A stretch of 64,000 bases of DNA from Marsupella aquatica (taxonomy: Eukaryota > Plantae > Marchantiophyta). The stretch covers positions 8,867,875-8,931,874 of the forward strand of contig OZ316891.1 of the NCBI GenBank assembly GCA_973895155.1, in the 5' to 3' direction. The notes under the pieces were generated by a model. The model searched no databases and was not told where the DNA came from. It saw nothing but the letters and a program-made list of their open reading frames with translations. The first letter of the stretch is position 1. Every line of letters starts with the position of its first letter. Positions 178 through 38,167 of the stretch are shown here, in pieces. The position numbers and the translations under genes are program-made.

Positions 178-459
178 GTGCTTCTCGTCTATGACCGCTA
201 CCAGATCGACTCTAGGTGTGCCATGCGTGATAGATTTGGGCGTCAAATAGTAGCAAGCAAGCAAGTACGATCGTCAAAGTAGGCAGCGCCTACCTCCCGA
301 TTGAGCAACGCAGCAATGCAGCTCCAATCCTGGCACTCCGGTTTGAGATATTGCAACACTCCCTGCAGTAGCCACCTCCCGTTTCAGCAAGCTAGCAGCT
401 CCCGTTTTAGAAAGCAGCAATGCAACACTCTCGACACCCACCTCCCGGAGCGCAACACT

Positions 460-4789: not shown

Positions 4790-5200
4790 TAAAAAGGTCA
4801 AAATTTAGAAATTCATGATCTCTTTAGTATAATTGTCTTGATAAACTCTCTCAATGTCATGCTCATTAGAAAGCTAGAGGAAAATTAGAAACTCATCATC
4901 TCTTTAGTACTTGACAAAATCTATCAATGTTAGGTTCATTGGAAAGCTAAGGAAATTTGGACACTCACCCGGGATACTCATGATCTCTCTAATTCTTGAC
5001 GAATACTCCCAATGTCACACATTAGAAAGCTAGAGAGATTAAAAATCTCATGCTCTTTAGTACTGTGACAAAATCTGACATGAAATTTGTCAGTTAGACA
5101 TAATGTTGGAAAGCCAAAAGAATTCATTGATGAACTCATGATCAAAATTTTTTATTGTCACACTCATTGGAAAGGCAGAGAAATTCAAAAACTCATTTGG
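4790..5200. repeat. Degenerate ~70-bp tandem repeat (aaattagaaactcatgatctctttagtacttgacaaaatct..ggaaagct), part of a dispersed repeat family
   Basis: About 5 copies. An inverted relative lies at ~29870-30040. The associated motif tacggacccc..ggggtcc..aaattcc occurs at 4288 and 29348, and inverted at 11575-11630. Confidence 0.6.
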
Positions 5201-5442
5201 AACAAAATTTGTCAATCTGAGGCTAATTGGAACCTTTTCTCGATTAAGAGATGTCACAATCTTGTCACCGTCATAAACTTAACTGATGGCAAATTGATTT
5301 TTTTGATTATGTCGTCATCGTTTGTTCGCAATGCTTGCTTCCCGACTTGAATTGTTTGCGTCCCTCCAAGCTTCAACTGAAGCTCACTCTGAACACAAGT
5401 TGACGCCAAATGCAACTTTGGAGGTCCCACATTCTCCGCCAA

Positions 5443-8158: not shown

Positions 8159-10649
8159 TTGTCCAGGACGAAAATCGATGCCAATACTGTCGGACTCCCA
8201 CTATCAAAGTTGCAAGCCCCACCAGATTTATCAAGATCTACCCTGCCTCAGGTGCATAAAAGGGAAACTAAGACAGTACGTTCTCGGATTCTCCACTTAG
8301 CTCTCGACCATCCAATTGAAATCTATTCAAGTTGGTGGATGTATCCGGTCTCATACAACGAGCCTACGACAGAAGTGAACGAAGAGTAACTGAGATTGAA
8401 TTGAATGGTTTCTTCGGGATCAATTGGAATAGCTAGAGAATATTATACTGAAGCATAACTTATTGTGTGCGACACTGATTGTTGTCATCTGATGTAATTG
8501 ACTCTAGTCCTACTGCTACCGAATTTTCTGTCGAGAAAAAGTGAAGAAAAGAGTGACGTCGGATTAAGAAAAGTGAGGTTCATAAGTGTACACATGGACT
8601 TCTGAGTTAGATCAACTTCCTGAATCTTGAAATAGCCTCATGAGTTTAATCTTGAAATAGCCAAACTTTTGATAATATATAAAAAGTGTGAATCTAATTC
8701 AGATTCTCCTCTTTGGGTCCAACCATGGCTTATCTACAAGTTTTAATAAAAGAAAATGCTTTGCTATACATAAATTGTACGTTATACATAAACCGTCAAT
8801 ATTAAATGATAGTGTAGAATATATAGTAGAAGTATCATTATCAATTATTATAATATGCTATGTGGCCAAAAATTTCATCGTTTGCATACAAATTTGGATA
8901 TGGAGGCAACAAACCTTAGCCATCAGAGTTTTTTAAATCTGAGTCAACACACCTTAAGCCATCAGATCAGATTTCTAAAAACTAAGATTTGTGTGGAATC
9001 ATTGAACTAACGGACCAGGAGTGTCCAATGGAAAGATATACTTATTTTTATAGTAAAATATATAGTATATGTGATCACTCCTATGTTACATCATCTGTAA
9101 TGTGTCTTTTACTGCATGTACCCAAGTAAGCACTTTGGGAAGATAATATTTTGGGGCATGCAAAACTTTTAAATTTGGCGTTTTGCATCGAATATGACAA
9201 TTTAGAAGGAAGAAGATTGGGTTACATTTGCTTCACTTTTCACTCTTTTTTTTGTCTTTATATAATTGTGTATATTTTCTCTTTATTTAGTTGTGCGGAA
9301 GGGAAGAAAAAGGGGGAGGAAAGGAGTGAAGAAATGAGAAAAAAGGAAGTAAAAGAAACATGCTAACTAAGGCAGAAAAAGAGAAGATTGTGCAACCACA
9401 CCTTGAGCCCCCAAAAAACTTTGTCTTGCTTGACATCTTTGCCTTCACATATTTTGTAGCATTAACATCTTTATTTTGCCTCAACATATTTCTTTGCCTT
9501 GACATCTTTGCCTTGCCTTGACCCCGACCTTGGGTCTTTACGTCTTTTGTCAGCTCAATATCTTGCCTTGCCTCCACATTATTTCATTGCCTCAACATCT
9601 CTATTCTTTAAACCACCACTGTCCATATAAAAGGAGAAGTGTCCAAGACTCCTCACTTTTTCTCATTTTTCTCCTCTGACTTTGCTCCACAATTTCAAGA
9701 AAAGTATACTAATAAATAATGGTGGAACCAGGTTTTGTCATGATGGACATTGGCACTTTAACAGCTTTTCTCAATTCGAGTTGTGCGCTGGGCTAGTTTA
9801 ATACTACACAGCTGGGCTAGTTTAATACTACACATTAATAACTTTTGCATTGTGACATCCACTCCCGTGCATGGGCTTCATTGCATATTAAGCTGGAGCA
9901 AGGGCCGGATCTTCCTCTTGGGAACACTTGTCTGCATTGTCACATCTAGAAAGACATCTTTACTATCCTTTGAACTTTAGTTGTCACCACTTATTTCTCA
10001 GTAATGTTGAGGTAACATTGTTTTCTGGGGTTGGTTTCCCCTGGCCCCTTAATTTGGGAATTCGTTGGGCATTTTCCCTTCCCTTTTTCCCTTTATTGGG
10101 TTGGTTTGCCTTTGGGACTCTCTTTGGCATTTTTTTTAAAGTACTTATGTTTTGGGGTCTCATTTACACAAAAATTAGTTCGTGGACCCCATCTGTTTTT
10201 ATTCGATCGAGATTGAATTGGAGCGCACTGCACAAGGCCCTCCTATGGTGAATCCGAAGTCAGCAGTGTTACTGCAGCAGCAAACACCAGTTCCACCTCC
10301 TTAAGTGTAACCTCTTCCATTTTCTTGTGAACTTACTGTATTTAGGTCTGCTGTCTAGCTTTTCTCCTGGATTCATCCATTCTGTAGTAGTCTTGAGGCA
10401 CAGTTTCCTGTTTGTAATGGTCAAAATTTCTGAACCTAATGTGCAGGACTTGTGCTTTGTAGAGAAAGGCAGGGACGGCGTCAGCATTGTGTGCCGCTGT
10501 CGTGGGTCACCACATGTGTCTCGCATCTAAATTGTAATAGTAATTTCCCTTGTTCAGTGTATCATAGATTACTTAGAAACAAAACAGTCCCTTTCGTTCC
10601 TTCAAAGCTGTACGTACAATTGATCTGGTTAAATATCGAATCTTCTCCA

Positions 10650-10832: not shown

Positions 10833-12220
10833 CTGTATTAGAGGGCATTTCATATGAGTCAAGATGAGTACAATATCTTTCACAATTGCCTAGAAACAAC
10901 TGAAGGTCACAAAATTATGATCAGTACAGTACTGCACTAGAGCGAATGAAATTTTTGAATCTCATTATGATTTCTTAGGAAACTGGTAACTCACATTCTC
11001 GTCGGCGGTTATTGACAATCAGACCGAACGCCAATCATAATTCCATACATTGACTTCCAATCATAATTATGTATGCAATGTTTTCAGGGAGTGCTGATTG
11101 AAAGTGAGAAATGATAACCCTTAGACTATCGACACACTTTCGAGAGGAATGCCCGAATTGAGAAGGCAAGAAGACAAGTAGATAGAATTATGATTGGCGT
11201 AAGCAGTGCAACTAACAAAAACGCAGTCAATCTCTGCACTTTCTGCACTCATAAGGTTAGTTTGGAAAGTTACCTTCTGCCGCTGCGGGATTCTTAACTG
11301 CCATGTTATGTTGTTTCATTTAATTAGTTACTTATTACTTATAGAATATATTGAATCACAATTCACAAAAAAGGGTGGGCCGTTGGTTACTCGCGGTAAA
11401 TAAAATTGAGTTGCAGGCCTACTCAGGGTAAATAAAACAGTTATTTTTTATTACTTTTTAATGAACATTTACGGCACGGCGTCCTCAATTTTACCAAAAT
11501 CCTGCCGCAAACACGAATGTTGGCATAATTTCATTGTGGAAACCAATCCGTTCATGTTTGCAGTGAGCCATGATGATGTGGCGCGCTGTGGAGTCAGGAA
11601 TTTTGGAAGGGACCTCTAGTGGGGTCAGTAATGACAGATCACATGCAATGGATGATAGTATCATTTTATGGGTTCTAAGGGAATATTTAAAAAAATTCCC
11701 AGAGTAGATATAGGGTATTTTAAATCCAATTGACACTTATAGAAAATATTATGGTATTTTAAATCAAAGTTTTGAAATATTCCAAGAATGTTTTGACTTT
11801 ATAGGGGTTAATAAAATATTTTTTTAAAACCACTTTAGGGGTCCTAGTCACAAAATCGTTGCAAGTGATGGGCTCCATGTAGCCAGACCCCCCGTGCATG
11901 TTGAGTGATCTAGACACAAACTGGGAAAGAACTTGTGTGTCTGCCACCTAGTAGCCCCAACCAGGCCAACTTGTTTTCGCGAAGAAAATCAAAGTGGGCA
12001 TGAAGACCTCTGAGTCAACAATGCACTGGTCCAGTAACGGTCCTTCTGCCAGCTAGCCTTCGGGTCGAGAAACTAATTAATCACAACCAGGCCTCCATTG
12101 ATCTTGAAGTTCACAGCACCAAGTCAGATCATTTCGGTACGTCCTTCTGACGTTCGAATTTCAATTATAGAAATGCTAGGGTAGAAACGTTAAAGTTGGA
12201 GGTCCCACATTCTCCGCCAA

Positions 12221-15032
12221 TTATTCTTTGAACCCTTCAATCATAGCCATACCGCCTGGCATCTGAACTACGTTACAACGTGGAAATCCAGCAGCTCCCA
12301 GAATCGCTTGGTACTCCTCCTTGCTTCTCTCCCGGGCACCCTTCAAATACGTCAGCATCATTAGGTCCATACACGCAACATATTTACCCCGAATGTTGTT
12401 GTCATGCTTGTCCTTGAGACACTCGGCTAGGATTACCTTCCCGTTCTTTGCCGGGAGTGCTTTCCAACAATTCTTAAGGATTTGGATGGCTTCTTCATCT
12501 CCATAGTTGTGTATAATCCACTGCATTACGAGTCCCAAGGCGATGAGTAATAAGACGATTGTCAGAGAGTGTTATTCCCGGTGTTATTGTTGTTATTTAC
12601 TTAAGGTTTCGATCGACGCTGGCAAAAATGAAAGAATATTTTAATTTAAGAGTCTACTTGTAGGCACGATCGATACATGAAGAAACAGTGTTGCATTCTA
12701 TCTGTTTTCTTGCACACGATCGGACAATCACCGTATCGCCTTTAATTAGCTACGAACGAGAAAACACGAGACTGAGCCATGCCAAGAAAGTTTGGGACAT
12801 GCACCATTCAATAAGTACGTACACATAAAACGAACGTTAAGGTTCTTGCATTCAGAAGTGGGGAGTAAAGTACGAACCTTAAGAAACAATGCGTCTCCTG
12901 ATGGCACACTCTCGAAGAAACTGCCTCCTACATGCTGCACACCTGAGTCACAGAAATTTTGGAGATAAATTCACCTTATTTGTAATTAAATACTAACACT
13001 TAGAAATATCCCTCTATATTTAAGATATATGTTCGTCATCTATGTACATTTGAATTGGATGATTGTGCTGTCTTCGGAAGATGACAAAGAAGCTCCCGTA
13101 CATCAGTAATTGAAACTAAGCTTGGACAGTGTAGATAAATTAAGCGAAGGGAACAAATTTAAGAGCTTGACGATCAAGATTGGAACGGGGATAGCTGAGA
13201 ACCGCGCACCATTTACTGCCGGAACTGTGGCAATAACAGATGGCAGGTCGAAATTGATGCCTTTGATATGTGGGTTGTTAGCAACAACCTGAGATACAAA
13301 GTGTCCCGCCGATCCTCCCACGTCGACCAGAGTTTTCACACCGTCGAGCACACCCGAATGCAGCAAACTCTCCAACGCTCCTTCCAAGAACACGTTGCTG
13401 TTGGAGTCCATCGCCTTTCGGAACACTGACTGCGACCCCACGGTCGGTTTATGCTCGTAAACAGTCACTCCGTACACTTTCATAAAGGCAGTGGTAGTCT
13501 CATCTAGAACGGCTTCCGGCAAGTAAAGCTCACAAGGAACAGCAGATGGGCTTTGGACCAAATCTGCACAAAATGGCCAGCGGGATAAATAGATCTACAT
13601 TAATTAGAATTTACCAAATGCTTAACACACTCGGGTACCAGAGTATAATTACCAGGAATACATTATACCAGGAATACTCCTGATAGTTTTCCAAGTAGGT
13701 GACCAACAAAGGTTTATTTCTCTTCGCTACGATCAGATTAAAGAACTCTAAATCGAGCAAGCGTGAATCGCTTAGTTGCATATCAAATGTTCCGTTCAGT
13801 TAGCTTTCATACTGCGGTACCCACATGATCGATCTGTAACAGGAATCCAGATTATGACGAACCTCAATTCTCAATTAGGAAAATGGTTGCGAGATTAAAT
13901 TGGGATTTGTCACTCCAGTAGTAAAACTTAATACAATTTGTCAGTACTAAGGAAATGATTTCTGCACGCGTGAAACCTTTCTTTAGATCGATCAAATGCC
14001 CTTGAATCGACGGCCAGTGTCCATGAATCATGACAGGCGGGCATTTGAGACTTTGACGATGGCTTATATACTAGCTTGTCCGCATGGCACTAGCAAATAA
14101 TCATACTGACTAGCTAGAGTATGTATCAACGTTACTATTGGTTAGAGCTATGCATCCAGGCTGAGATGGTTACCGAAAAGCTCTTGGACCAATCTTTTGC
14201 GACCTTAACTCAAGATACGTTCGTCGCATACGAGAAGGCCATCCAGATTGCTACTGGCTGTCTAGCAAGGAAGTTTCCACATGCGTAGGTGACAAATGAT
14301 TTTAGAATAAACTCCTACAGCAAAATTATGCACCTGTTCGATGGGATGAGCTTCGTGTGTCGTGGCTTGCTACTTACAAATGCCCTTATATTTGCGTCCT
14401 TCTTTCAGGGCAGGATCAAGGATAACATAGAATTGATCGATGAGTTGTGAAGGTACGTACCCACCTGCAAAGGGTGCGATGCTCAACGGATTTCCTCTGA
14501 CGAACCATTGGGAGACTTCGTTAAGGCCATAAACAGGTTGCTCATCGCCGTCCAGAGATTCACTGAAGAGCCCTTCTCTCACTAAGGGCCCGAGGAGGCG
14601 CTGCAAATTCTGAACCACGGTAGGTCCTGCAGGAGTGGATTTGGTTGGCAGCTGCCGTAGAATTTCCTCGGCCGACATGGGCTTTCTCCCTTGCGCACTA
14701 GCGAGGATGTCTGGGACACCTAGCTTAAGTATGGTCTGGAGCGCCATGGAAATGAGTCTTGAGAAGATCAGATTCTGTGCCACGAGGTGGCTGGAATCGA
14801 TTTGTGATGTCCTTGCATCATTGATGCTGCTCATCGTGGCCATGGTTGTAAGTTTGTCCACATATCGCCTCGCGCAGACCACAGAGCCCGCCACAGAGTA
14901 GGGTTGAAGAGCCCCGATGCGGAAACGCCCATAACTCGGCAACCACAAGTCGTTTGTGCGAGCTTGAGACGGCGTTATGAACGGGCGGCCGAGCCCTTCA
15001 AGGTGCCGCTGAGGGAAGGAAATGCACGACAT
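12221..15032 (-). CDS. COMT-like SAM-dependent methyltransferase, copy 2; 4 exons, 428 aa
   Basis: Exons 15032-14465, 13563-13210, 12942-12878, 12520-12221; GT-AG; 1287 nt in frame. Motifs LVDVGGSAG, GINFDLP, VGGSFFESVPSGDALFLKWIIHNY, GARERS. Confidence 0.93.
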
Positions 15033-17109
15033 TTGTTTAGGAGGAAGATCAATGCCAGTACTATCGGACCCTCACGACCAAAGTTGCAAGCCACACGTAC
15101 CAGATTTCTCAATACTCTTTGTGGTCTCGATGATCCAAATCTAGTCAAGGTAGTGGATGAATCTGGTTTTATACTACAAATGTACAGCAGAAGTGAACGA
15201 AGAAACCGATCGAGAATTCAGTGGTTTTTGGGGGATCTGTTGAAATATTGAGTATTATAGTGAAGCACAACTTATGCGTGCAACTCAAACATTGATTGTT
15301 GTCTCTTCGACGCAATTGACTCAATTCCTACTACTCCGGACGTTGCTGTCGAGAAAAGTAAGGTGGGATATTTGGTGCTCCTACAGGCCTCTCGTTTCGA
15401 GACAGCAAAATTTTAAATGGGAGATACCAAAATTAATGCCAATCCATTGCTATTGAGACAGCACGTAAAGTACTTTGCCATTGGGTGGGTATCTCGCTGG
15501 AGATACATAGCAATGAATCTATCAGAATCCTTCTTCCCTTCAACCTGTGAATATTCTCCTTGCTAGCAGAAAATTTTGTGTGCTTGCATCATACCATACC
15601 TGACTTATTATCAATCTTTGTATCATGGAAAACTGTAATATTATAGTACTTTGGAGGATACTCGCTTCTGTTTTGGATCCTTCGAGTTAAGATCCTCTAC
15701 AGTAGCTGGCGACAGTATTGAGAGCAAATTGTTATCCCGATTGTGGCCTTTTGTGTGGAGATTAACTTGACAACAGAGCACCAAATGAATATTAAAGTGG
15801 GCCCATTGTCATCTTCTAACAACCATGATTCTTAGATTTATAACTTTCTGCAGCAATGACCTGTTATTTATCTTTGGAATGAATACGATCATTCTATTGG
15901 ACGTTGGATATTCCATCCAGGTTTGGCCGTCACTGTCTGGATTCTCCTCAGCTGGCTACGTGCACAAAAGTTTCAGTGGAAAAATAAAAAAACCTAAGCT
16001 TTTTCCAACTTGGTGATAAATTTATCATTTCTGGTCGCGTTTTGTAGTTCTGGGGATGATGATTAGACAGTGGGTGATTGGTTCACTTTACTCAAAAAGA
16101 ATCTGCAAGGTCTGATTGCCATTGTGTTAGTGCAAAATTAATGTTAATGCTACTATTTGTTTTTAGTTTATTGAGGTGGATAAGTAACATTTTTTAAAGT
16201 ACCATACCTTTGAGTAAGTGTTTTCCAACCAAATTTCAATGATATTCTTAGCTCAATTCAGATAGTAGTCCTTTCCTTCTCCTTAGGTTCCCATCAATCT
16301 TGTCATCCACCTTTACTAAGTTGCCACCCTTTTCCATCTCTTATTAAGTTCGCTTGACTTGTGTGCAATTCCAAGAACCCACAATTGGACAGTCAAGTCA
16401 ATCACATTGCTTTTAAAGGCAATAATGCATACCAAATTCAGTAAATCCCTGGTATTTGCTCCGTCCGAATCACTTAGTGTAAAACCCCTAAAACCTCGGG
16501 GGCCTCAGTATACAGAAGACCCCATATCACGTTCGACGTTTTGGGTCCTTGTGACCCTAACTTATTAAGTAAATTTTTTTCCCCCTCTCTATTATACTTA
16601 TAAGAATTTCAAATCATAAGATTTTGACCCCTAAAAACAGTTAAGTAAAGTTTTATAGTCAATTAAACATACCATAGTAAGAAAAGAAAAGTTTTTCAAT
16701 TGCACACCTTTCTCAAGTCTTCGAGCAGTAATATCTCCTTTGGCGTCAATATCTCATGCAAAATTTATAATATATACTATTGATGCTTCCACTATATATA
16801 GAATCTCAAATCTAGTAGAAGCTTCAGCAATTATATACAATATGAGTTATTCATATTTGCATTGTTCGCTGCTTGAATATCACATGCGAACTATAGGTGC
16901 AACAAAAGGGAATCTCCCAATATTCAAAATCTTTATATGATGAAATCTTTACATGATTGTTTCTTTTTGAATGGTGAGTGTACATGCATGTGGTAGAGGG
17001 GAATTGAACCCCTGATTGAGCAATAAGCTCAAGTATCCAAATCTGCCACCCCCTAGCCTATCCTCTGTATCTACAAAAACCAAATGTTGCCATGACTATT
17101 TGATGCAAA

Positions 17110-20100
17110 TCATTGAACTCTAGACATGGTGTCCAAATAAGTATCCAAAGCTTGTTTATCGACTCGGTCTAACACATACACTAAGCCAATCCCTTGTTTC
17201 ATGGTTAGTGTAACACTAGTCATCACCATTTCTATATCAATCCATTGCAAATCAGTTGTATCATAGGTGAATTCAACCTTATTTGAGTTTGTTGGCTTAT
17301 ACCAATTGAACAAGAATTGACAAATACTCCCTGTGTGTCCATGGGGAGATGTTGGCTTGTCAAGTAGATCAATAGCAGATCTCACTCTAGTCCATTGTCC
17401 CTTAATTTTGTCTCATCATCATAATACGACCAAGCCAAAATTCTTTCTTTGCTTGCAGTGTTGGTTCCTCAATCCTAGCTTTACCTCTTCCCTTACCTTT
17501 ACCCTTCTTTGATCTTGTAGAAGGCCCTACCACATTAGCACTTTCAACTGCTACTCCACAATCACTTCCAACATCAACAAAACAGGTCAGTCACACTATT
17601 AGGATCACATTGTTTCCTCTTACCAAGATTATAATATGCCACTTGCTTTACCCTTGTGAGCCGCCCTATCCTTGGACAAATGAGGATTACCCACCAGTTG
17701 ACTCACCAAAGTTGATTTGTAAATTGTCCTGCCCTCATAAGTAACAGTAGGACAAACTTTCTTCTTAATTTTCTGGCACAGAACTGTGAATAGACTCTGT
17801 AAGTCAGCCACAACAGAAGACAACACATGACGAACCTCATGCCCCAAAGTATCAACCTCTACAGAATGAGGTTCTAGTATGTCCACCCCATCCTGCAAGA
17901 CATCCTCAGGAATGGTTAGTTCATCTGTCAACCATGCATCAATTCGATTTAAATCTTCCTCAGGGTCTTCAAATTCATGAAATTCTCCTTCTGGACGAGG
18001 TCCAATTGGAGATCTATGCTCTACATGATCTTTAGAATCATCAACAACAACTGCCTCTGCTAATACAGCTGATTCTGGCCATGTCTAAACTTCCACATCC
18101 CAAGGGTGAGTCCACCACCGCCTTCTTGCTATTGGCAGATCACTTCTGGGAGACATTTGCAACCTTCTTACTTAGGAACTCTTTTGCTTCTTCAAATCCT
18201 TCTTTCAAGGCTGCAACCACCAACTCATTAGTTTGTACTTCAGAATAGTCAAAAAGATTAGGTGCATCTTCACCTTCAAGTAAAGGATGAAGCTTGGCCC
18301 ACACATGATCTTGTTTTTTATGTGATCGAGCTACTTTCAGGCCCTCTAGTCCACATTCTAATCCAGCAAGATGATTTAACCCAATAGCACTATCCAGCAA
18401 AGAGCCAAAATCATAATTTCTCTCATGGCCACTCATTCCACCTACCTTGCTAAAAAAGATCTCGCAACAATCAGAACCCAACTCATGAAATGAAATACAC
18501 AAATGAGAGAACTTATCACGAAAAGCACATACAAGCAATACAATAAACTGGCAAGACATATTAACATCATGAAAAGCTTGGATTGATCGAAATCATGTTT
18601 TTTTCTGTATGTGAAGCAACATTTCCACCTACAGCATGATCACCATACCTCAACCACAACCTCCATAACAAAAAAAACCAAGAAACTTTGGCTGCCAACT
18701 TCACTCTAGTCCTCAGGTTATGTTTCTGGGAATAGAAAATGTCAATGTAGTCTGCACAAATCTGTAGATACAACTTACTCTGTCCCCAAACTTCTTTCAT
18801 ACAACAGATCAGTTCTTCCATGCAAATCTGCTAAACATGCACGTACCTTCTCTGATGCTATCCTCTAGAGGGACCAGCCCAGTTTTGACGATCAGATCTG
18901 TTCACATCATCCCAATTCAACCCATGTTGATGGATTGGATAATGATTATAATACACATTACGAACATGAAACAAAGAAGCATGTTGGTCTCCAAGTGCCA
19001 TTATAGAGGACACTCGATCTAGTGGGTTAATCAACTTCTTCCCATTGTGAGGCTGATCTTGATCACCAAAACCATACAACTTGTCCCCATTAGGCAATAT
19101 GGCAACAGAGTAAGGCCATCCTTCCCACCCTACACAAAATAGAGGATAAGAGCCATTTGCTCCTCTGTAATCTTCTAACATCAATTTTCTACGTCTAGCA
19201 TCACCATCACTAGCATGCCCAAGCAAAGGACCTACAAACTCTCTGCAATGCACATCCCAAGATTCTTTCAATTGCACCCAATGCTCTCTGACCCATTCTG
19301 CCTTAAACTTGTTACAGGTTGATATAGCACAAAGGGCTAACTTTGGCATTCCAACATGTAATGGATTCACAATGACAACTCTAGCATACATGCCCTTGTT
19401 ATACTCTTCAAACGTATTTACAATCTTGTTATAGCCATCCTCACCATCACCTAAAAGAACTTCTGATCCAAATTCACAGGTGTGCCCATCCTTATGTCCA
19501 CAGAAACCAATCAGAGTATCATATTTGGCCTCCCACCTGCAAAGTGCCTAGTGAAAACTAACGAGATTCAATAATTGGTAAACCTACATGTAAACAATCA
19601 AAAACAATCTTTACTTCCAATTGTTACAATATGCAAACACACCTTGGGCTTTCCTTGATCCTGGTTTCATCCTCTGCAAGCAAAATAAGTACATCCCCTT
19701 GAATTCCCAACATGTCCTTTGCAGTAGACAGAATCCTAGCCACCTCCTTGAATGTTTCTGGTCTAATACCAGCACAAAATTGGACAAATTTTTCTCTGTC
19801 TTGTTTCAATGTCTTCAGGCTTGGCCCAGCTAAGTTTCTTGCAAAAACATGGGCCACCTGCCGACCTCCATATTGAAACATAGCTTGAGCTATGGCTTTT
19901 GTTTTCGGACTGTACCAAAACCCCTTGCATTTCTCTCCAAATTTCTACTTGCATTCTTCAAGAAATCCCAAAGACATTCTTTTCCACCAAATGCACCATT
20001 CCTATGACCATTGACAATGCTCCTCAAAAAAAGTCTCAAATCTTTTTTGTCTGCAGCTACTCCTAACAGTTCCTGCAATTTTCTCTTCCTAGACAGTACT

Positions 20101-21437
20101 AAGGGCACACACTTTTTGAGTCTAGAGTGCCAACAACCATCTCTCTTTTCTCCTCTTGACATTCAGACCATTCATTTGTATGGTCAACTCTAGACGTGTC
20201 AAATAACGTGCATTCAAACCACCTTGTGTACTTCTTTCCCCTTCTCTTTGCTAAAGCCTTCGCTTCCCTGTGCACCCGCCCATGAAAGTCATCTTCTAGT
20301 GTTATAGCATGACATCTACTGCAAGTTAGGTCGACAAACCCCCCACCATACAAGGATAGCCTGCAACAATGTTTATGCCTAAATAGCCCTTCTACATGTA
20401 CAATAGAATTTGTGTTTGGATTGTAGACATCTATAGAGGCTGAAACATCTAAATCCCATACATGTCCTCCACGTTGATCATGCAAGATACCCTTGACAGC
20501 ATACTTCACATTCTTCCACTCAACATGTTCATCCCATATACCCCAACAGAGCAAACTTAAGCCCAAATCAATGTCTACAGACCACCTATGCCAAAGCTAC
20601 TCCTTGCATTGGAAGCATCCTCGAAGAATTTTAAAATTGAATTCTGTGAAGGATGTTGATCCCTCTCATCTGGCTTCCTTGGTCTGCCCCTCTTTCCAGA
20701 TCTCAATGCAAGTTCAGTAGTATTCTCTCTGGCTTCAACTACATCCAGGTGACCCGACTGACCAAGTGTGTCCTCAGGTTGTGATCCAAAGTCCCTTTCT
20801 TACAAACCAAATCCATGACTGCCCCACAGACTTTACAGCGAACCTTATACAGGAATCACTTGTTTGCATTATTGGCTAAACCAGGCACAGGGGGCACATG
20901 AAATAACTCATCATCACCTCCACACTCAGCATTCAGATTCTGTACTATCTCTAGGCCAGTTGCTATTGCCCCCTCATAATCAAACTCAGGCTTCTATGCA
21001 AGATCTGAAGGCTTCACCCTAGTCATAGCAACACCCCTTCTCCTACAAAAATTGTCTTTGTGTTTAGCAAAGGTGAGGTGCTTGGTCTTAAAATTGCTGA
21101 AAAGATTAGCAATTGACTTCTTATCTTGGGAATTGTCTGCCCTGCCATAGACCACTCTACACTCAAGACACTCTAGATGGCCTCTCACATCCTCTCCTTC
21201 ATCCCATGTTTTAATTCTCCAATTGTGATCTTTATACCCATTCTTGTAAATCCACTTCTCTAGTCTTGTAAATTCATCATTCCAGACTTTAACAGATGCG
21301 TGCCTTAGACATGAGAATAGACTCAAAAGAAGATCTGACTGGGGGAGCTTCTTGAAGTTGTTCACCCTGTGAAGAGTTGGACATTGCACCTGCTTGGGTG
21401 ACAGCATCAGAAACTGATGGAAACTGTGTTCTACCAT
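17110..21437 (-). pseudogene. P-element/THAP9-like DDE transposase with N-terminal Cys/His zinc-finger-like modules; frameshifted
   Basis: Ordered motifs across ORF fragments: LLAEDETRIK (D1), GHASDGDARRR (D2), DQPHNGKKLINPL (DxxH), DRQNW (insertion domain), GSDCCEIFFSKVGG (E). An intron at ~19537-19642 joins KESPR|WEAKYDTLIGFCG. CxxC..H..H at 20994-21437. Several frameshifts. Confidence 0.72.
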
Positions 21438-21966
21438 TTGGCAGTGATCCTATTTGTTCAATGACAGCAACTTTTCCATGCATCCAATTCAAACAGCTCA
21501 GTCATTTTCTCACTCTTGACCTTCATGTGACCAGGAAGCCTATAATCCCAGAAATCAAAATCAAAATCAACCAAATCAGGAATTCAACTTCAAAAATCAG
21601 CTAAAGTTTGTCCTTCTTTGAAAGCCAACACAGCTATAGGCTCTTCATCTTTCCCATCAGTGACCACATCCCTCTTTTTGTGAAGTAATTTTACAAACTG
21701 GGTAGCCATTTCAACCAATTTTTTCAAGTTAAAGCATCAAGGGTCCTAATAACAATCAGTCAGATAAGGAACCTGCCATACAGACTGAACCTGACATACA
21801 ACACAATGGACAAAACAATACAACATGTATTAGATATTACTCCAAAATAGTTCGAAAAAGCTTTTGATCACCAAATTTGATGACCAACACAAACAAAATC
21901 TTGTTCATGATTGCTCCTGTGATTAGCCTAGTGATTAAGTTTGCTTGTACCAAAGCAATTCTATCA

Positions 21967-22699
21967 TTATATTTCACAGCCTCTAAGAGGTATGGGGTTG
22001 CATAGGAACCAATTCGCCCTCAGGTATTGCATGCCTAGATGGCAATAAATAAAACACCACCCTTCCACATCCCACTGGTCCCTGCCCTTCACACATCTCC
22101 TGAGGTGTTTAGCACACCCAGGTGTCTCATCATGGCACCAACTGCGAGGGCACCTGCAACATTGTACAAAGTCCTTAATCCCATCTTTGTAGACTTTACA
22201 GTACTCACAAAAATGCCTTGGGCACAATAGATTTTTTGGACTTGCTGCATGAGACCTTTGGGGCAGTGCCCCGACCATAAGTAACACTCTCAGGCAGCCA
22301 GGGTGGTAATGGGAAAAACAATCAGGGTGGGCACAGTGGAGCACAAGAGACTCCTCTACTGTGGGATGTTCAAATCTGCCAATGAGTCCACAAGCAAAGC
22401 ATCTAGCTCTGCCGGCAGAACACAATTGGCAAACCCAAGGTGCCCTCCAATCATTGTTTTCCTGAAGGCAATGTGATAGGAGTGCAAATGGCCCCCTGCA
22501 TACCTTCTCCACCAACAAAGTGAAAATGTCTACTGCAAGGCCCGTCACAAAATACCACATCATCTGTCTCATCACAAAAGAAACAGCAAGGGGGATCCAT
22601 GCGGTGGTGCTCCTTATGGGAAAATATGTCAATCCGTGGCACATCAAAAGCCATGTTGACTTGCCGGATAGGGATTTTACCTTTGCACAACAGATCCAT
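21967..22699 (-). pseudogene. EDM2/NSD-like tandem PHD-finger cassette inside the P-like element (one frameshift at ~22510)
   Basis: CFFCDETDDVVFCDGPCSRHFH ... WVCQLCSAGRARCFACG ... CAHPDCFSHYHPGC ... CPRHFCEYC ... FVQCCRCPRSWCH. The Cys/His order is the same as in the composite PHD region of Arabidopsis EDM2 and animal NSD1-3. Confidence 0.75.
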
Positions 22700-23457
22700 T
22701 CACTCAGCATTGATATTGCAGCCCCTCAATAGTCATCCCTTCAACATTGACCAACATATTCCTACTTATTTTGCAACTACGGACTAGGCATCTTGAGCGT
22801 AAGCACAATTACCTCAATTCTCTTCTCTAACAAGAGATACAACAAATGATGTTAGTTGTTTGAGGTCTACTCCTTCCACAAATTTTGGATCAAAACGTAT
22901 ATTGCTGAAGCTTCTGAGATGCTTCCACTACACCATAAACCAATCCATCCTGCAAGAAGAATTGAGAGCATGTTAACTTATGAGGTGAACTCGAGGACTG
23001 TTCAAACTGAGGCCACACTCATTCGTGGTGGAATTTAATTCCTTCATAAAGGACAGCTGCATGCTGTGGAGACTAAAAATAGAAAGTGATCAAACAATAA
23101 AGAACTTGAGCAAACAACTAAACTATTGATTCAAGTTGAGGCTGTTTCAACTACCTCAAGAAGCTGCCCTCTTTTTGAACGACCTGCACAACACAGTGCC
23201 AAACAAATTTCAGTCAAAGCCTCTATTTCTAAACTGACTTTCAGCAATCCATGGAATTCAGAGTTTCTGTCCAAGCGTTGTTGCTAGCTTAAAATGAGTT
23301 GGACTGCCACCTAAACAGGAGCTTTTAGTATGAACTGGACTAAGCCATCATTCGATCATGGATCCTTGCAAGCAGGACAACACATAAATCCGCTTGCAAA
23401 AGAGGGGAGGGGGGGGGGGAATACAGCATGGACTCTTTGAGAGCTCTAGCCAATCGC

Positions 23458-23737
23458 CTCGGGGGTCTCACTATATGGGAACCTCCCCATTGCCTGCGAC
23501 GTTTTTAGGCCTCGGACCCCCTAAAATGTAAGAATTTTTTATTATTTTTTAACCCCTATAAAGTTGGAATATTCTTGGAATATTCTAAAAATTGGATTAA
23601 AAAGACCCTAATGTTCTTATAAGTCTCAAAATTGAATTTAAAAGACTTTATTGTTAAGTCTTCGCTTAGAACCAATAAAATGACCCTATCCTTCGTCGCA
23701 CGTGATATGCCATTTTTGTGGAAGTGAAACCCCCGAG
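23458..23737. mobile_element. 280-bp MITE of the P-like family nested in the 9.2-kb element
   Basis: TIR CTCGGGGGTCTCAC / GTGAAACCCCCGAG. Exact 8-bp TSD CCAATCGC at 23450-23457 and 23738-23745. Confidence 0.92.
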
Positions 23738-23839
23738 CCAATCGCTCACCTGATCAAGGACAAAGGAGCTAGCTGGCTAACAAATAAAGCTATGTCTAAG
23801 CAAGGTCATTGCACATCTGACATTGGCATGGACTGTCAA

Positions 23840-24025
23840 AAGAGCAGCAAGAGATACAAAAAAGCAAGGTACAGAGCAACGAGATACAAATTAAGCAGCA
23901 AGGTATAGCGAGATACAAAGCAGCAAGGTACAGAGCAGCAAGATACAAAGCAACAAGGTACAGAGCAACAAGATACAAAGCAGCAAGGTAGAGAGCAGCG
24001 AGATACAAAGCAGCGAGCTATAGAG
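23840..24025. repeat. 15/30-bp tandem repeat (agatacaaagcagcaaggtacagagcaaca)
   Basis: Directly visible; it generates the spurious (LYLAA)n ORFs. Confidence 0.85.
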
Positions 24026-24224
24026 CATGTAGTGAGCTACAAAGCAGCGATGAGATGCATTGTAAGAGAGGTTTCTTTGTGGAGCAGAAGGTAGCAACAA
24101 GTAAAATTGAAAACAAATGAGCCGTGCCCTTACATTCACGAGTGCAATTTATTCATAAAGGACACACAAGAAGGGCATTTTGAACACACCAAGAGCAATG
24201 GATAGAAAACTCCACCGATAGTAG

Positions 24225-24970
24225 GTTTGCCCGATGACAACTTCGCTTAATCACAGGTTTGCCAATGACAGCTTTGCTCGATCACAGGTTTGCCCGATCA
24301 AAGCTTCGCCCCTTCACAGATTTGCCCGATCCAACGTAGCCTGATGCCAACTTTGCTTCACCACTACTGCCAGCTTCTCGATTGCCCCTTGATCGCAACA
24401 GTCTAATCAAATCGCCCACAATCATAGCAGCCCGATCAAATCTTGCACCCCCCGATCACAGCAGCTCCACAAATCTTGCACCCCCCGATCACAGCAGCTC
24501 CATCAAATCTTGCCCCCCCCCCGATCACAGCAGCTCCAACAGTAGGTCAATGTAAAGTTGCCCCCAATCACAATAGCTCAATCAAAAGTCGCAGCTCCCC
24601 GATTACAGACTAAGTAGCTCTCCGATCAGAGTAGCTCTGGCAGTAGCTCAACGTAAAGTCACCCCCAATCACACCAGCTTGATTGAATCTTGTCCCCCAA
24701 TCACAGCAGCTCAATCAAAAGCTGCAAGGCCCCGATCACAGCAGCTCAATCAAAAGCTGTACCCCCCGATCACGGTAGCTCAATGAAAAGTTGCAGCCCC
24801 GGCCCTGATCAGCAGCTCAATTGAAAGTTGCAGCCCTGCCCCGATCACAGCAGCTCAATGTAAAGTTGCAGCCCCGGTCCCGATCAGCAGCTCAATTGAA
24901 AGTCGTGCGCAGCCCCGCCCCGATCACAATAGCTCGATGTAAAGTTGCCCCCCGATCACAGCAGCTCCAT
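24225..24970. repeat. Subterminal repeat array (cccgatcacagcagctcaa..aaagttgc)
   Basis: More than 12 imperfect ~30-40 bp units, ~0.7 kb from the right terminus. Confidence 0.85.
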
Positions 24971-25992
24971 CCACAGTCAACTCGCCGTTGATCAATCTTC
25001 AACCTTGCTCAATCAGTGCATCATAGCGCCCTGCAGCATGCATGCATTTCCTTTCGAAAAGTATCGAGGCAGCGTTTGATCAGCCCCTACCCTCGCGACT
25101 CACCCTCTTAATTTTTGCCCAAAACACTGCAAACGTTCACGAGTCTCTCAAATAGGGTTGCGGCGGCCATGCAGGGCCTGATTTAGGGTAAAATAGAGCA
25201 GCAATGATCCAACCATCCGTTTCTTGGGCCATCGGTCGGCTATGGTCTATTTTACCCTAAATCAGTCTCGCTGCAAGTAACAAAGAATGGACTTACCAAT
25301 GTATGGCCGCACGATGTTGACACAAACGGCACTAACCTGGATCAATGGCCCTAAATGCTCTCGACCTGCGCACCTGACCCTTGCTCTTCTCCCCTCATCG
25401 ACGACCTCCCGCTCACACCCACAAACAAAATTTTGACCCAAATTGGCCATGGAGTACACATGGTCCTGCACATGCATGGTGCCCCTAAACCAACTTATGA
25501 AAGGAATTGCCACATGGACCAATAAACGATTGACACGTATACCCCATATATTTTGTTGGCTAATACCCCTATAGTTCTTCCACAAAACTTCTTAAGTCTT
25601 CCGGAAAATTGAATTAAAAACCCTATACTTATTCATGCGTGATGGGTCGGAAGTTATTAAGTGAGGACCCCGGCCTAAAACATGTGAGAACAAACCCATA
25701 AAATTTGAAAATGTAGATTAAAAAACAAATTCTAGCTATTAGAAAACCCTTGTACACTTTATTGAATGACTTTTGATAAAAAAAGTTATATCTGACTTCC
25801 TGAATATTCAAATAATATTTCTACCAGAGTTGGATTTTTAAATTAATGCCTTAAATAGCGTAAGTTTTTGATTATAACTAATAGCCCGTCAAGACTAAAA
25901 ATAACCTTCATTTGTTCACTCCCTATTCTAATAACCCAACAAGTGAAAAAATAATTATAAATAAAACTAAAATAAAAACGCAACAAGTGAGT

Positions 25993-26017
25993 GGTCAAAA
26001 GCAAGCTAGAGGGGTAC
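25993..26017 (+). mobile_element. Solitary Sola2-like left TIR
   Basis: GGTCAAAAGCAAGCTAGAGGGGTAC, identical to 44194-44218. No own right TIR seen. Confidence 0.7.
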
Positions 26018-28834
26018 TTGATCATTCACTTACAAGTCTTCCTTATCCATGGGCGATTATATGAGAGATGATGGCGCTGTTTGGGGACTAGAGTAGAGGT
26101 GAAAGAAAGAGCTTATTTGCAAGTTCTGGTAATCAACGAGAGATGGCAATTCTTAGTGAGGTAGAAGACGAGGCTAGAAAAAGAGAGACTAAGGGTCGCA
26201 ACCAATGAAGATGCGGGTGAAGACGCCAAAAACAAATATGGTCAGTCTAAGTGAGAGGAAGCAAAAACACTCCCACTGAATACAATTGGGCGGATGAGCT
26301 TCTTGCAGATGCAAAGCAGCACCGTAATTAATCACATTCTTGCAGACGCAAAGCAGCAAGGTAATGATATATGCTTGCGTGCGGAGTTACAGTGTGAAAC
26401 TTAATGTGTTTGCTGAGGTAGAGCCCCTCGGCCCTCAGCTTACGTAATCCCGGAAACACGTGCGCCCGCTTGAAGGGTATTTTTAATCCATTTCCGGCTA
26501 ATAATTATAATTCAATTAGAACCAACCAGCCCGCAACTTTATACAAATTTGGGTTTATAAGGAAGAAAGGTATAATTTCCAAAACCGTGGCAGCCATATT
26601 AACTCAACCGAAGGGGTCCTATAATGTATGTGACACGCGTCATAGTATAAGGGGCCATGTGGCAAGGTCTCAATCATTGGAACATAGTGTCCCAAGTGAG
26701 TCACTCTATTAGTACCTAGACCCATATCTTAGTTTGATTATCTGGTTTGTAATCCTGTTTGTAATAGTCTCTCCGATGTAGAGTGCACGCTTGGTGCAGG
26801 CAGTGCCCATGCTTGTGGGGATGTTGCTGCTGCCCACCTATTGCCTACCAATCCATGTCTTGTCCATAGTCTTGCCTATACTAGTTTAGCCAAACTGGTA
26901 AAACATATCTAAACTACGAGTGATTGTATGCCCCACTAGGGCGCTGTATGCATCATTTTTCTCCAAAAAATTTGTGTATCTCAAATTGGATCTTGTATGT
27001 TAGCCATATCTTGGGTTTTCTTTATTATAATTCCACAATGGGTTTTCAAATATAGATTTTATCAGTTTTATAAGGCATCTAAGGGTATAAAAAATTATCA
27101 AAAACTAATTTTTTACATGGATAAAAAATACAGTTGATCAAAAACTAATTTTTTACAAGCCAACCTAGCCAGCTTTTCAGAAATTTTATTAAAATTCTAA
27201 AAATCTTTTAATAAAAATTACAATATGATTAGGAATATTTTTAATTTTATGCTGAAAAAGCAGAAAACTAAACCTTTTATATGACTTGGAAAATTCCAAA
27301 TACTAATTTTTTTGTATAGTCAACTTTTTTAGTCCATATAAAAATATATATATCCCCATGCCTATTATACAAGAGATATGTTCCCGGGGCCAGCAATTGC
27401 TTTGTGGGCGGTGTACGTGAATGAACAATGCAAGGCGACGGCTGCTATGGACGACATATGAGAAATCACTGCCCAGTCACAGAGTAGGTTGCTCCGTTGT
27501 TACAGGCCATGCTAGCTTTTAAACTTGCAAAACCAAGTTGCTAAAGGCAAGGGAAGAGTCTGTGTTTTGAATGCAAGCATAGGCAGAAGGGAAGCACGTC
27601 TCCAAAAGCATTGAATGCACAACTTAACACTCAGTACATGTGTCTTAAGTGTTGATGAGCCAGAGTTTCAAGTTCATCATTTGGACAAGGCTGGAAACCC
27701 TGCTGGAAACAAGCTCAATACCAAGAAAAGCACCAATCTCACACGCCCATGAAGAGAATTGGCGTATTTAGGGATCATAGTGATCCTACTCCAAACCGGA
27801 AGCGACAATGCACATCAATACATTACTTATACATCATGTACATACATTGAAAATTCCCTGGCACGAGGATGTGTCATTGTAAAGAATTAAAAATTTGTCT
27901 TATAAAAAGGGAGTTGCGTACCCCAGGTCCATTGTAGGGAGTACATATCAGACCTCAGTGCCCACAATTTTGGGTGTCAAGCATCAAAACATCTACAAAG
28001 CAAGTGCAATGAGGAGGATGCATCAATTATGAGATATCCTACCAGCCGGTAGCCAAAAGGTTAAGAGTGACAACTGAGATTTCTATTGAGGTACGAAAGA
28101 TTGTGAAACGGTATAGGGTATAGGGAAGGCAATGCTCAAATTTCCCTTGCAAAAAGGATGTGGCCAAACTCCTACTAGGTGTCAGCGAAGAAGTATGCAG
28201 GGAATTAAGTACGAGAAGCATTCCAAGCATTGGCTTGAGGATACCAAGGTAAATACTGGGTAATAGCTACTTTTTGCAATTATGATTGTGTTGAAATTGT
28301 ATTGATTGTGCCATGATAGAGTTTTTTTTGGTTTTTTTCTAATTTAAGGAGAAATCTATGAAACCCCATAGAAAGTGAATAGTCAGTCACAACACAGATA
28401 ACCTACCACTCAGCCATGCCTCTCTGGGCACCATGATAGAGTTTCTATGATTAAGCTGAACCTTATATTGCAAATGGATAGATCCTGATTTCATATTCAA
28501 TGCCCATCCTGCAAGTTGAGTTATTCATGAAGCTCCAAAATTGGTGCACTGTGGAGGGGAATGGAATAATTTCTATAGGTCTTAGATCCTTTCAACATTA
28601 ATTTTTAAAGCCATATATCCACACTATGAAGGATAGAATAATTTAATTGTATATATGTTGTTGCAAACAACATATAGAAATGGACCTGTTGAAGGAGGCA
28701 CTCAACAAGTTCAGGAGACACCAGCACCAAAAGGATTGTAATCATTGATGATAAAAACACATGACAAAAGTCATTATCATTGATGACAAAAGTCATCATG
28801 TATGATAATCATTTTCACATAAATAATATTAATC

Positions 28835-31800
28835 TCATGAGGCTCGACCGATCTTTGCAGAAATACCGTTGCATTCAATTATTTTGTTTTCTGGCACACG
28901 ATCGGAAATACTTGATTAGCTTAGACGGGGCCAAGTTTATGACAACAATTATTAATGAATACATGTAAAAGGTAAATTAAAGCCCGGTCTGTCCACCAAG
29001 ATTTCGCTCAGTTGTTGATTCCAACCAGAATGATCAATAAAACTTTTATATTTATCCAGAATATTTGAAGATTAGACTTATGAGTCTCATTCAGGTGAGC
29101 TACCATGCAACTACGCCTCTCCTCAGGGCAACTGGTGTAACAAAACTTTATCAAGCACTCATGTGAGAGGTCCCATGGATACCCCTTATAATTAGGTTTA
29201 CATATCCCACTGCCCATATTTTGACACTCCTTATATATATGGAGAATCCAACTTTACTGTTTTGTCTTATTCATATTTGTGTATCATGTATTTTTATTTT
29301 AATGTACCTTAACAAGGGGCATCCTTTGTATCACATAGACTTTTAATTACGGACCCCCATTAGGGGTCCTTTCCAAAATTCCTGGCTCTACAGCGTGCCA
29401 CATCATCATGGCACGCTGCAAACACGAAAGGACTTGTTTTTGGATGAAATTAAGTTCTGAGTTCATGTTTGTGGCAACTTCTTTGTAAAAACTGGGACGC
29501 CATGCCGTAAAAGAGAATGTAAAAAAACCTACATGCAAATCAAAAGATAAAAAGATTGAGGTAAAACTGTTCCTTGTAACTGTTTTATTTACATTTTTAT
29601 TATATTCAAAACATAAAATTTTCCCGGTAACAATTTTTGATTTGACATTGCTGAGTCAAATCATAATGAAAACTCACGTATAATATGACGTTGGAAAGAT
29701 CTTGAAGAGACGGTCCTAATGAGCTCAGGATTGTCAACATTCGGTAAAAATTGAGTAAGTAATTTAAAAAACATATTTTATCCATGATTTTATAATCTAT
29801 AACATGAATAGAAATCTTTGTTGCACAACCTCCAAAGTGTTGATCTCTTCCATGAGAATGAACCCTAAAATTGACAGATTTTATCGTACTAAGGAGATTC
29901 TGAGTTTTAGAATTTCTTTAGCCTTTTAATGAACTTAACATTGATAGATTTAGTTGAGTTCTGAGTATTATGAATTTCCAATGTTCTTTAACTTTCCAAT
30001 GAGTGGTCATGAGTTTCTAAATTTCTCTAGCTTTCGATCGATTCAGAATTCTACAATTGGAGATTTGTTTCCGTGAAACTTTTTGTCTCAAACAATTATG
30101 CAAGGTTAGGATTTGATGACACCAATAATTTCTCCCTCTTCGTCCCTATACGTGTAGGAATTGAAAAGTGATTACTTTCAATACAACTTGAGTGCATCTG
30201 ACATCCCTTCAGTACCGTGGAGGAAACCATTAAACACCGTTTTGCTAAAGTGGGCAATTAAGCTACCCACACATTAAACAGTAGTTCACATTGTAGCTGG
30301 TTTTGTGATTGATGTTAATTATGGTTGCCTCGGTAAATTTGGAAATTGTTTCAAGTGTCAAGCTTTGACTTGTCCATTTTTCAATTGATTTTTCTTTAGA
30401 TTTGGAGATATATCTGGGCTTCAGTTTCTAGATAACTGCCTCTAAAATAACATGGGGGTCCATGGATTAATTCATTTTTGGTCCCCTTTAAATTTTTGGT
30501 ATCCTATAATATTTTGAATTTATTTTGGCAGCCCCCTTAAATTTTTAAAATTTGTTAAGTCCTAGAGAGAAACCAAGGGCTTCGTTTTCTAGGCTTGTAA
30601 GTATTCTCATGAGTGAGAGGAATGATTCTAAATAATGTCAACACATTCTGTCTTAACTTAAATTCCCCTTGTGGCTTTCTTTCCTAAATTTATGGTTTTT
30701 ATTGAAATAAGAGTCATTAGTAAGACACATTGAAGTAAGTGCAGAACTGGTAACATCTTTGTGTCATAAATTTTAATTATATTTTCCATTGGTCACTATG
30801 TGCTTTTATTGCATGTGCTTTATTGCATGTGCTTTATTGATGTTATTTTATTCTATTCACACATTTAATATGTATTCTAATTTTACTCTCTAATTTTAAC
30901 TTAATATCACTACCAGACAAAAAATAAAGCATGTTGATGAGCATGCTATATTGCTATATCATTCGGCAGCACACAGTTAGTAATGGACCTTAATTTCCTA
31001 TCACACAAGTTGTCCCGAAATTAAACTAAGATTTAATCGTCACTCCGTGAGTTTAGGAAAGGAATTTGCACAGGTGACAAGTACACTGATTACCGTAATT
31101 AATCTCACACACAGTATTTGGGAACAAAGGTTTTTGAAAGCTGTCACCATAATTAATGTGTGTGAGACTATATAAGAAGTGATACTAAATACATGCTATT
31201 CTAAATTAGAGTAAATGAGATTATTTTTGGTGACACTCAAATAGTGTGTGATGAACACATATTATGTATATAGCTTATGAAAACTACAAATATTTCTAGT
31301 AACTGTAAGATATATTTGTAACGGCGTATAAAATTAAAAATGAATTTCAATTGAAAGTCAGATTTCATTAAAGTATGATGAAATGAAAACCAGGTTATAA
31401 ATACAATCAAAATCAAATTAGAACCAATGACAATAGACTGAACTCTTTACTTGTACTAATATTTATATTTTTTCAGATTTGTAGTCACACCCTTATTAGT
31501 GTGTGTGATACTATTTATGCAGGGAGACTATATAAGTTATGATACTAATTACGGGAGACTATATAAGTTATGATACTAATTACGGTAAACAGTGTAACTA
31601 AGCTTTGGATAAAATGCGCTTGACTGGACAGTCTACAGTCGGTGTCCATGATGCATGATAGTCGGACATTTGAGATCTTGAGATGATGATGGTGTGGCTT
31701 GTTTGCTGGCCTAGGGCAGCAGGTCACAATCATACTGTCTAGAGTGTCGACATTACTATTAATCAGAGCTACGAATTAATCGACTGGGGTGTGGATTTGG

Positions 31801-32640
31801 TTGGCAGTTGCCGTAGAATTTCCTCAGCCGACAATCATGGGCTTTCTCCCTTCTGCATTAGCGAGGATATCTGGAATACCCAACGTAAGTATTGTCTGAA
31901 CTACGATGGAAATGAATCCTGTGAAGACCAGATTCTGTACCACGATGTGGCTGTCATCCATTAGTCATTTCATCAGAGATACTGCTCATCGTGGCCATGG
32001 TTGCCAGTTTGTGCACAGATCCGCGCCAGACCTCGCCCCAAAGTTGCAAGCCCCACGAGGTTTATCAAGATCTACACTGCCTCACATGGATCGAAGGGGA
32101 AATTAAGACAGATCTCGGATTAATTCTCAACTTAGTTAGCTCTTCTTGCTCTAGCTCTATCATTCAAATCTATTCAAGTTAGTGGATGAATCTTGTCTGA
32201 TACTGTCTACAAGTCTACAACAGAATTGAACGCAGAGAAAATCAGATTGGAATGGTTTGGGTCGGGATCAATTGGAAGAGAGAATGTTATCTAGTGAAGC
32301 GTAATAACTTAAACATGCAACTCAGGCATTGATTGGTGTTCTTTGACGCAATCGAGTCAACTCCTAGCTAGTACTACATACGGACAGTGCTGTCGAGAAC
32401 GGTGAGGAGAATATTTGGTGCTTGGGTTATCGCGTTAACATTAGCTAGCTACTATGGTCGATTTATGTCACTTTTGGGTGGAAGGCAATTTTTTCTGTTC
32501 GGTCAAAACTACAGTAAAAGATATTTCATGATAGTGAGATCTTGGAGCGACAGAAGTGAGGTGGATATTTGGTGCTTCCGGAGGTCAAAATTCTGGCTTG
32601 TCTCGTTTAGAAACAGAAAGTTGAAAATTGATACCAAAGT
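28835..32640 (-). pseudogene. Decayed fourth copy of the methyltransferase gene
   Basis: Exon-1 remnant 31787-32040 with frameshifts and a deletion removing the first ATG. Upstream-region homology 32040-32640. Intron-1 remnants at ~30985-31083 and 31595-31780. Intron-3-like remnant at ~28835-29035. Exons 2-4 not found. Confidence 0.85.
31084..31594. mobile_element. 511-bp MITE with TA target (Tc1/mariner-type) in intron 1 of the pseudogene
   Basis: TA|CACTGATTACCGTAATTAATCTCA ... TGATACTAATTACGGTAAACAGTG|TA. Removing it restores gcacaggtgacaa..agcttt, as in the paralogous introns. Confidence 0.85.
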
Positions 32641-38032: not shown

Positions 38033-38167
38033 TTGTCTAGGTGGAAGATCAATGCGACTACGTGCTATCTGACTCTCACTGCCAAAGTTGCAAGCCCCAC
38101 CGGCCAAGTTTATGAAGATCTAGCCTGTCTCACATCGAAAGGGAAACTGAGACAGTTCTCTGAATCC

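Follow-up and report, generated by a model that had tools for sequence, protein, structure and literature searches.

A predicted EDM2/NSD-type PHD gene upstream of the transposase gene in a multi-copy P-like DNA transposon of a liverwort

The accessible text of a survey of 21 plants reports P-element MITEs from Chlamydomonas only (PMC9641971), and a review of land-plant transposons, in its accessible part, treats six TIR superfamilies and mentions P for Drosophila only (PMC9033089). According to the accessible portion of PMC7529245, Arabidopsis EDM2 binds H3K9me2 and combines two and a half PHD repeats of atypical form with acidic, PGR and methyltransferase-like parts. In the AAE complex, together with ASI1 and AIPP1, it favours polyadenylation at distal sites where introns contain heterochromatin (PMC9292364, excerpt), and fingers of the EDM2 type are also found in other eukaryotes (PMC3632883, excerpt). 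VANC of the VANDAL/Hiun MULEs causes elements of its own family to become hypomethylated, and Rehavkus carries a PHD fused to its transposase (both from the accessible part of PMC6446971); a preprint, likewise in excerpt, gives 823 candidate reader-transposon fusions (bioRxiv 2021.11.30.470311). Both the recruitment of PHD/chromo readers by transposons and the presence of accessory anti-silencing genes such as VANC are already known. VANC is a sequence-specific DNA-binding protein, and its targets are tandem motifs. A full-text search of the literature, with subscription papers and Repbase outside its reach, returned neither a land-plant P-like element with a PHD gene nor a transposon-borne EDM2-type reader; Repbase may contain unpublished entries of P-like elements from plants.

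We analysed a window of 64,000 nucleotides from Marsupella aquatica (the whole stretch of DNA, to which all coordinates refer unless stated), to which the contigs of four public runs (X1-X4; two organisms, two studies; one run may be the source sample itself) were aligned. At 16495..25673 on the minus strand the window holds one decayed member of a multi-copy family of P-like cut-and-paste transposons with two genes; it is 9,179 bp long including a nested MITE. Both flanks carry the exact 8-bp duplication CCTAAAAC (16487..16494 and 25674..25681), an 8-mer that occurs five times on the plus strand of the 64 kb (7.8e-5 per position). The terminal inverted repeat at the 3′ end of the element (16495..16512, plus strand) begins CTCGGGGGCCTCAGTA, the left terminus at 16495 reading CTCGGGGG, and its counterpart at the 5′ end (25658..25673, minus strand) is one base short. 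Though this base has been lost at the right end (25673), the 60 subterminal bases can be aligned to the right-hand ends of related window elements, and loose contig ends at 25653 in three runs continue as the same terminal motif, followed by variable flanks. A scan of the window for perfect TIR pairs with a target-site duplication did not recover the large element. The sole perfect pair CTCGGGGG...CCCCCGAG near the PHD region bounds the nested MITE (23458..23737, 280 bp), which has termini of the same type and its own 8-bp duplication, CCAATCGC; the idea that the target-site duplication belongs to this MITE alone was rejected after the decayed right end of the large element was found. The earlier note had placed a PHD region inside a TSD-bounded element, upstream of the transposase and on its strand, and the CCTAAAAC flanks around 16495-25673 bear this out.

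The nested MITE is missing from one X1 contig, which joins 23407 to 23744, and at 23458 the aligned contig depth lies far above that of the transposase. The 5′ region of the element also contains tandem-repeat arrays (23841..24948) with units of 15/30 bp, 16/31 bp and 33-37 bp; their aligned depth is near single-copy at 85% likeness, and they must therefore diverge fast among copies. Short terminal inverted repeats with 8-bp duplications, as expected of the P superfamily (7-8 bp), are found in the large element, in two MITEs and in L005, a metagenome relative discussed below. Further ends of the same kind occur in the window: a second MITE-type element at 61786-62072, with the 8-bp duplication CCCGGGAG, and single MITE-type ends at 1854, 11896 and 34222. 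Elsewhere the window contains three diverged copies of one gene (5400-8200, 12200-15100 and 35500-38100, with a fragment near 31800-31970), which may be of the caffeic-acid O-methyltransferase type. Long inverted, diverged duplicates at 26000-28750 and 55560-57290 (73-98% in pieces) are likely two copies of another mobile element. There is also a degenerate GC-rich array with telomere-like CCCTAAA units at 40112-40424, and tandem arrays of 73-bp and 83-bp units lie at 51300-52075 and 57985-58443.

The transposase gene lies at 17110..21709 on the minus strand. It is one ORF in intact relatives, but here the frame changes at least eight times and is cut by several stops. The uninterrupted single ORFs of two metagenome loci (1,492 and 1,514 residues) map over 17110-21284 of the window in changing frames, so that what had earlier been taken for separate zinc-finger and transposase ORFs, rightly placed 3′ of the PHD on its strand, are fragments of one broken gene of about 1,500 codons. 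The N-terminal domain of the metagenome and Riccia proteins resembles, by eye, the window frame that starts from the ATG at 21709. This conserved domain is followed by two zinc-finger-like motifs, a DDE core and a predicted C-terminal barrel. The catalytic motifs (18437..19677, minus strand) are AEDETR (19677-19660), HASDGD (19217-19200), DQDQPH with its D(2)H (19064-19035) and GSDCCEIFFS (from 18478), which we provisionally assign to the DDE triad by analogy with PMC3698922; the D, D, D(2)H and E are invariant or nearly so across 24 relatives. A copy-specific insertion of 79 nt within this stretch (19549..19627) is found neither in other copies nor in intact relatives: two of the four runs show the joint 19548-19628 without it, and the loci L003 and L005 are contiguous there.

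A profile search with the best-kept piece of the transposase found 554 proteins at E<=0.001; ten of these relatives were looked up, and they include five from Riccia and one from the fern Adiantum. In a quick-method tree of 72 rows, each spanning 185 or more of the 229 query residues and with short Riccia hits excluded, the window transposase pairs with a Riccia sorocarpa protein at 59% identity (SH-aLRT 98), which points to a liverwort as the likely host. The fold was tested by modelling the intact relative P0016 (mean pLDDT 79.6), which is 36% identical to the window transposase over the core and stands in for the broken window protein. The model matches the Drosophila P transposase with a Foldseek E of 1.3e-11 and a VIA Z of 26.8 (rmsd 5.2, 412 aligned), the alignment covering residues 128-566 of 6p5a; at E<=0.001 the only Foldseek matches are 6p5a and 6pe2, and the next-best VIA match is RAG1 at Z 10.0. 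A profile of 24 transposases compared by sequence with the PDB did not find the P transposase, which only the fold search recovered. The family is thus predicted to have a P-type fold, and together with the D(2)H-bearing DDE motifs and the 8-bp duplication this agrees with the P-like identity first suggested for the element. Since no THAP domain was found in the intact L003 and L005, in 45 relatives or in 12 window ORFs, we file it as P-like, outside the P/THAP family. No relative of the transposase was found in viral contigs. The C-terminal domain of the window transposase (17113..17590, minus strand) is homologous to that of P0016, whose residues 837-938 are predicted to resemble BAH/Tudor/chromo barrels at a weak to middling Z of 6-7, and Pfam, PDB-sequence and Atlas comparisons gave no support for a BAH/Tudor likeness. 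Other relatives bear extra domains of their own: Tudor (E 1e-9), SAP (E 6e-10), C1 (E 5e-6) and a weak UCH among P0038, P0060, P0135 and P0137.

Upstream of the transposase lies ORF1, a putative stand-alone EDM2/NSD-type PHD cassette of about 221 codons with two and a half to three fingers (21983..22654, minus strand). It runs from an ATG at 22654 to a stop at 21985-21983. Similarity to other copies drops just upstream of this ATG, and we therefore set ORF1 at 22654-21983 in place of the bounds 21967-22699 originally given for the PHD region. That a composite PHD is present is well supported: the ORF at 21970-22725 (minus strand) matches Pfam PF22908 PHD_NSD (E 3.5e-8; 34.1 bits, cut-off 23.9), and that at 22454-22699 (minus strand) weakly matches PF23011 PHD-1st_NSD (E 0.0013; 19.3 bits, under the cut-off of 27). 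Translating ORF1 across its first break with an X gives the identical two matches, that of the first finger ending at His46. The top ESM Atlas match is a PHD_NSD cluster whose commonest taxon is Streptophyta (score 0.93, 190 of 256 features shared), at a recognition of 2221, under the guide value of 2300. The ligand pattern fits atypical PHD repeats, with an irregular third finger, and the stop codon of ORF1 comes after the last ligand; a single-sequence fold model reached a pLDDT of 43. A Pfam scan of ORF1 and neighbouring ORFs found neither SET nor PWWP, and ORF1 itself consists only of fingers, with no acidic, PGR or methyltransferase-like (ELP) domain in its roughly 221 codons. PDB sequence searches with the PHD gave no match. 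Word-limited searches, which are weak evidence, scored no homologue among 57, 6 and 86 candidates and confirmed none of 139 pattern matches in a metagenome scan. The Pfam and Atlas families do not separate EDM2 from NSD, and with the finger spacing they would be consistent with EDM2 ancestry for the cassette. The long spacer between His and Cys in the first finger, together with the half finger at the C-terminus, presumably places it nearer EDM2 than NSD.

The PHD reading frame of the window copy is broken in two places, not in the single one implied by the earlier note, which had correctly called it frameshifted. A 4-nt insertion after the first finger (22462..22465) is missing from other copies, in all of the X4 depth and in part of that in X2 and X3, with loose contig ends there in X1-X3. 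Near the end of ORF1 a 2-nt insertion (22037..22038) is missing from about half of the aligned depth in X1, X2 and X4, and from none in X3. These are the two frame-change places of the window copy. The aligned depth of the PHD relative to the transposase median is 0.93, 1.23, 0.89 and 0.78 in X1, X2, X3 and X4, and it exceeds that of the lowest copy-specific bin 26- to 226-fold, depth not being the same as copy number; the bin that contains the spacer between the two genes reaches 0.19-0.48 of the transposase median in the four runs. Two X4 contigs, with 37 and 48 letters other than those of the window, run from the start of the transposase into the end of the PHD. Among the best-supported 40 of 186 differences to other copies, ORF1 and the 273-bp spacer hold 18 each. 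In ORF1, 12 of the 18 are silent, all at third positions, where 5.4 would be expected (P about 0.001). For the transposase the silent share is 20 of 34, six of 40 rows lying outside its frames. Because the list is a selected subset, the excess of silent differences is support for purifying selection and not an estimate of dN/dS. Taken together, these comparisons of sequence support the view that most copies carry the PHD and that purifying selection acts on it. Its transposase-like depth, the other copies without the frameshifts, the joins of PHD and transposase in diverged copies and the silent excess speak against a one-off capture, and the earlier note's own refuting condition, a single capture that evolves neutrally, does not hold.

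The PHD gene is, however, not found in the relatives compared. At the metagenome locus L005 a complete element of 6,096 bp (192-6287 of that locus), with perfect 26-bp TIRs beginning CTCGGGG and an 8-bp target-site duplication, contains one open transposase ORF of 1,492 residues and no PHD; it is apparently young and a candidate active element. No PHD match was found at any of 26 related loci, ten of which extend at least 2.6 kb upstream of the core, or in any of 161 related proteins. Transposition therefore does not need the PHD, the gene is not ancestral to the whole clade, and the intact L005 marks it as a lineage-specific accessory. L005 is a natural control without the PHD, and close relatives with and without the gene provide such a comparison within the family itself.

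What the accessory does is less certain. Our preferred reading, which we hold tentatively at a little under even chances, is that ORF1 encodes a histone reader that stands alone, has no part in the cutting reaction and keeps the element expressed in silenced chromatin. The predicted ligands of the protein are modified tails of histone H3, and it would dock on repressive H3 marks over copies of the element. Once docked, it might recruit the host EDM2-associated read-through machinery (ASI1-AIPP1) or compete with host readers, the outcome in either case being that full-length transposase mRNA is made. The dominant H3 mark on liverwort transposons may differ from that in Arabidopsis. The analogy with VANC drawn in the earlier note holds in that ORF1 is a separate accessory ORF, but it is a loose one: with no recognised sequence-specific DNA-binding part, the ORF1 protein cannot choose its own element as VANC does. 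A broader proposal, which we consider rather doubtful, sees in these elements a THAP-less land-plant branch of P in which the EDM2 module would be a mini-gene plug-in used across bryophyte transposon superfamilies for anti-silencing by histone mark, either hijacking ASI1-AIPP1 or pairing with the BAH-like barrel of the transposase as a private BAH-PHD reader.

The main rival to a reader that maintains expression is a separately encoded targeting partner, which would tether the transpososome to H3-marked nucleosomes much as the PHD of RAG2 does for RAG1. The position of ORF1 next to the transposase is fixed in diverged copies, and in structure the transposase family comes close to RAG1/Transib (Z 9-10), both of which fit such a partner. 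BAH-PHD modules exist in plants as paired readers, and the possible BAH/Tudor-like barrel of the transposase (Z 6-7) could pair with the PHD in a similar way. Chromatin readers of transposons are, moreover, usually taken as tethers (bioRxiv 2021.11.30.470311, accessible part). Intact relatives such as L005 nevertheless transpose without ORF1, and the BAH-like call is weak and without support from sequence searches, so that we regard targeting as possible but on the unlikely side.

One could also imagine, as the earlier note did for one of its two options, that an upstream exon codes for the PHD and is joined in frame to the transposase by splicing, giving one Rehavkus-like protein, since the two lie on the same strand and only 273 bp apart. 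The spacer (21710..21982, minus strand) is non-coding and diverged among copies; its AG sites follow pyrimidine-rich runs, and 11 AG sites within the first transposase codons would permit a stop-free join. However, all 13 spacer AG sites of the window copy fail to give a stop-free in-frame join, and in-frame stops of the spacer precede the transposase ATG. The relatives are single ORFs that open with a homologous N-terminal domain at the position of the ATG at 21709, none of the 45 scanned has a PHD, and ORF1 closes with a stop of its own. The start of the relatives at this ATG and the lack of a usable spacer AG site disfavour a fusion, which we think quite improbable, and the earlier note's second option, a separate gene with its own ATG and stop and a spacer before the transposase, stands.

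It is also decidedly unlikely that the cassette has been kept for a function other than histone reading, such as binding of proteins or DNA by diverged fingers, or self-restraint of copy number. The cassette is strongly diverged, without a sequence match in the homologue and PDB searches, the ligands of the third finger are irregular and the first-finger Pfam score is under its cut-off; but the composite cassette is complete and retains its Cys/His ligands, and the top Atlas and Pfam matches are all PHD families. A Pack-type passenger, a piece of a host gene picked up in a single event and since carried along without selection, would be in keeping with the absence of the PHD from all 26 related loci and with the broken window copy, but this is largely refuted and highly improbable, as the PHD is multi-copy, open in other copies, rich in silent differences and conserved beside a diverged spacer, with no close host-like match in the homologue searches.

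To our knowledge, the counter-defences of plant transposons described so far (VANC) act by DNA sequence. If our preferred reading of ORF1 as an expression-maintaining reader is true, this would be a counter-defence that follows histone marks: an EDM2-type reader standing on its own and kept by selection, derived from a host protein whose normal role is to allow read-through of genes across transposon heterochromatin. ORF1 would also be a natural minimal version, of 220 residues, of the EDM2 reading module. The family itself would extend P-type transposases to land plants, when set against the accessible parts of PMC9641971 and PMC9033089.

Comparison with the known systems shows both likenesses and differences. 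The window family is like Drosophila P, Galileo, 1360 and THAP9 (6p5a, 6pe2; PMC3698922, accessible part) in its predicted fold and its DDE with D(2)H, and the window element shares the 8-bp target-site duplication, short TIRs and associated MITEs of the P superfamily. Its transposase is, however, twice as long as that of Drosophila P, with other N- and C-terminal domains and 15% identity, and in contrast to Drosophila P and THAP9 the family has no THAP domain that we could find, has a second gene and lives in a land-plant host. A similar picture emerges for RAG1-RAG2, where again a DDE enzyme of related structure is accompanied by a PHD-bearing partner from a separate gene, although ORF1 has no RAG2-like propeller, the genes stand in tandem and the partner is dispensable in relatives. 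ORF1 probably resembles Arabidopsis EDM2 in its predicted PHD_NSD-type repeats, about two and a half in number, and in the long His-to-Cys spacer of its first finger, but it is encoded by a transposon, is only about 221 amino acids long and has no acidic, PGR or methyltransferase-like domain. VANC and ORF1 are both separate accessory ORFs in autonomous plant DNA transposons whose elements carry tandem repeats (PMC6446971, accessible part), whereas ORF1 is a predicted histone reader in which no VANC likeness was detected. Rehavkus, the chromoviruses and the 823 candidate fusions are likewise, as far as the accessible texts go, transposons that recruit PHD or chromo readers; in Rehavkus and the chromoviruses these readers are fused to the transposase or integrase, whereas ORF1 is likely a separate protein of the EDM2/NSD composite type.
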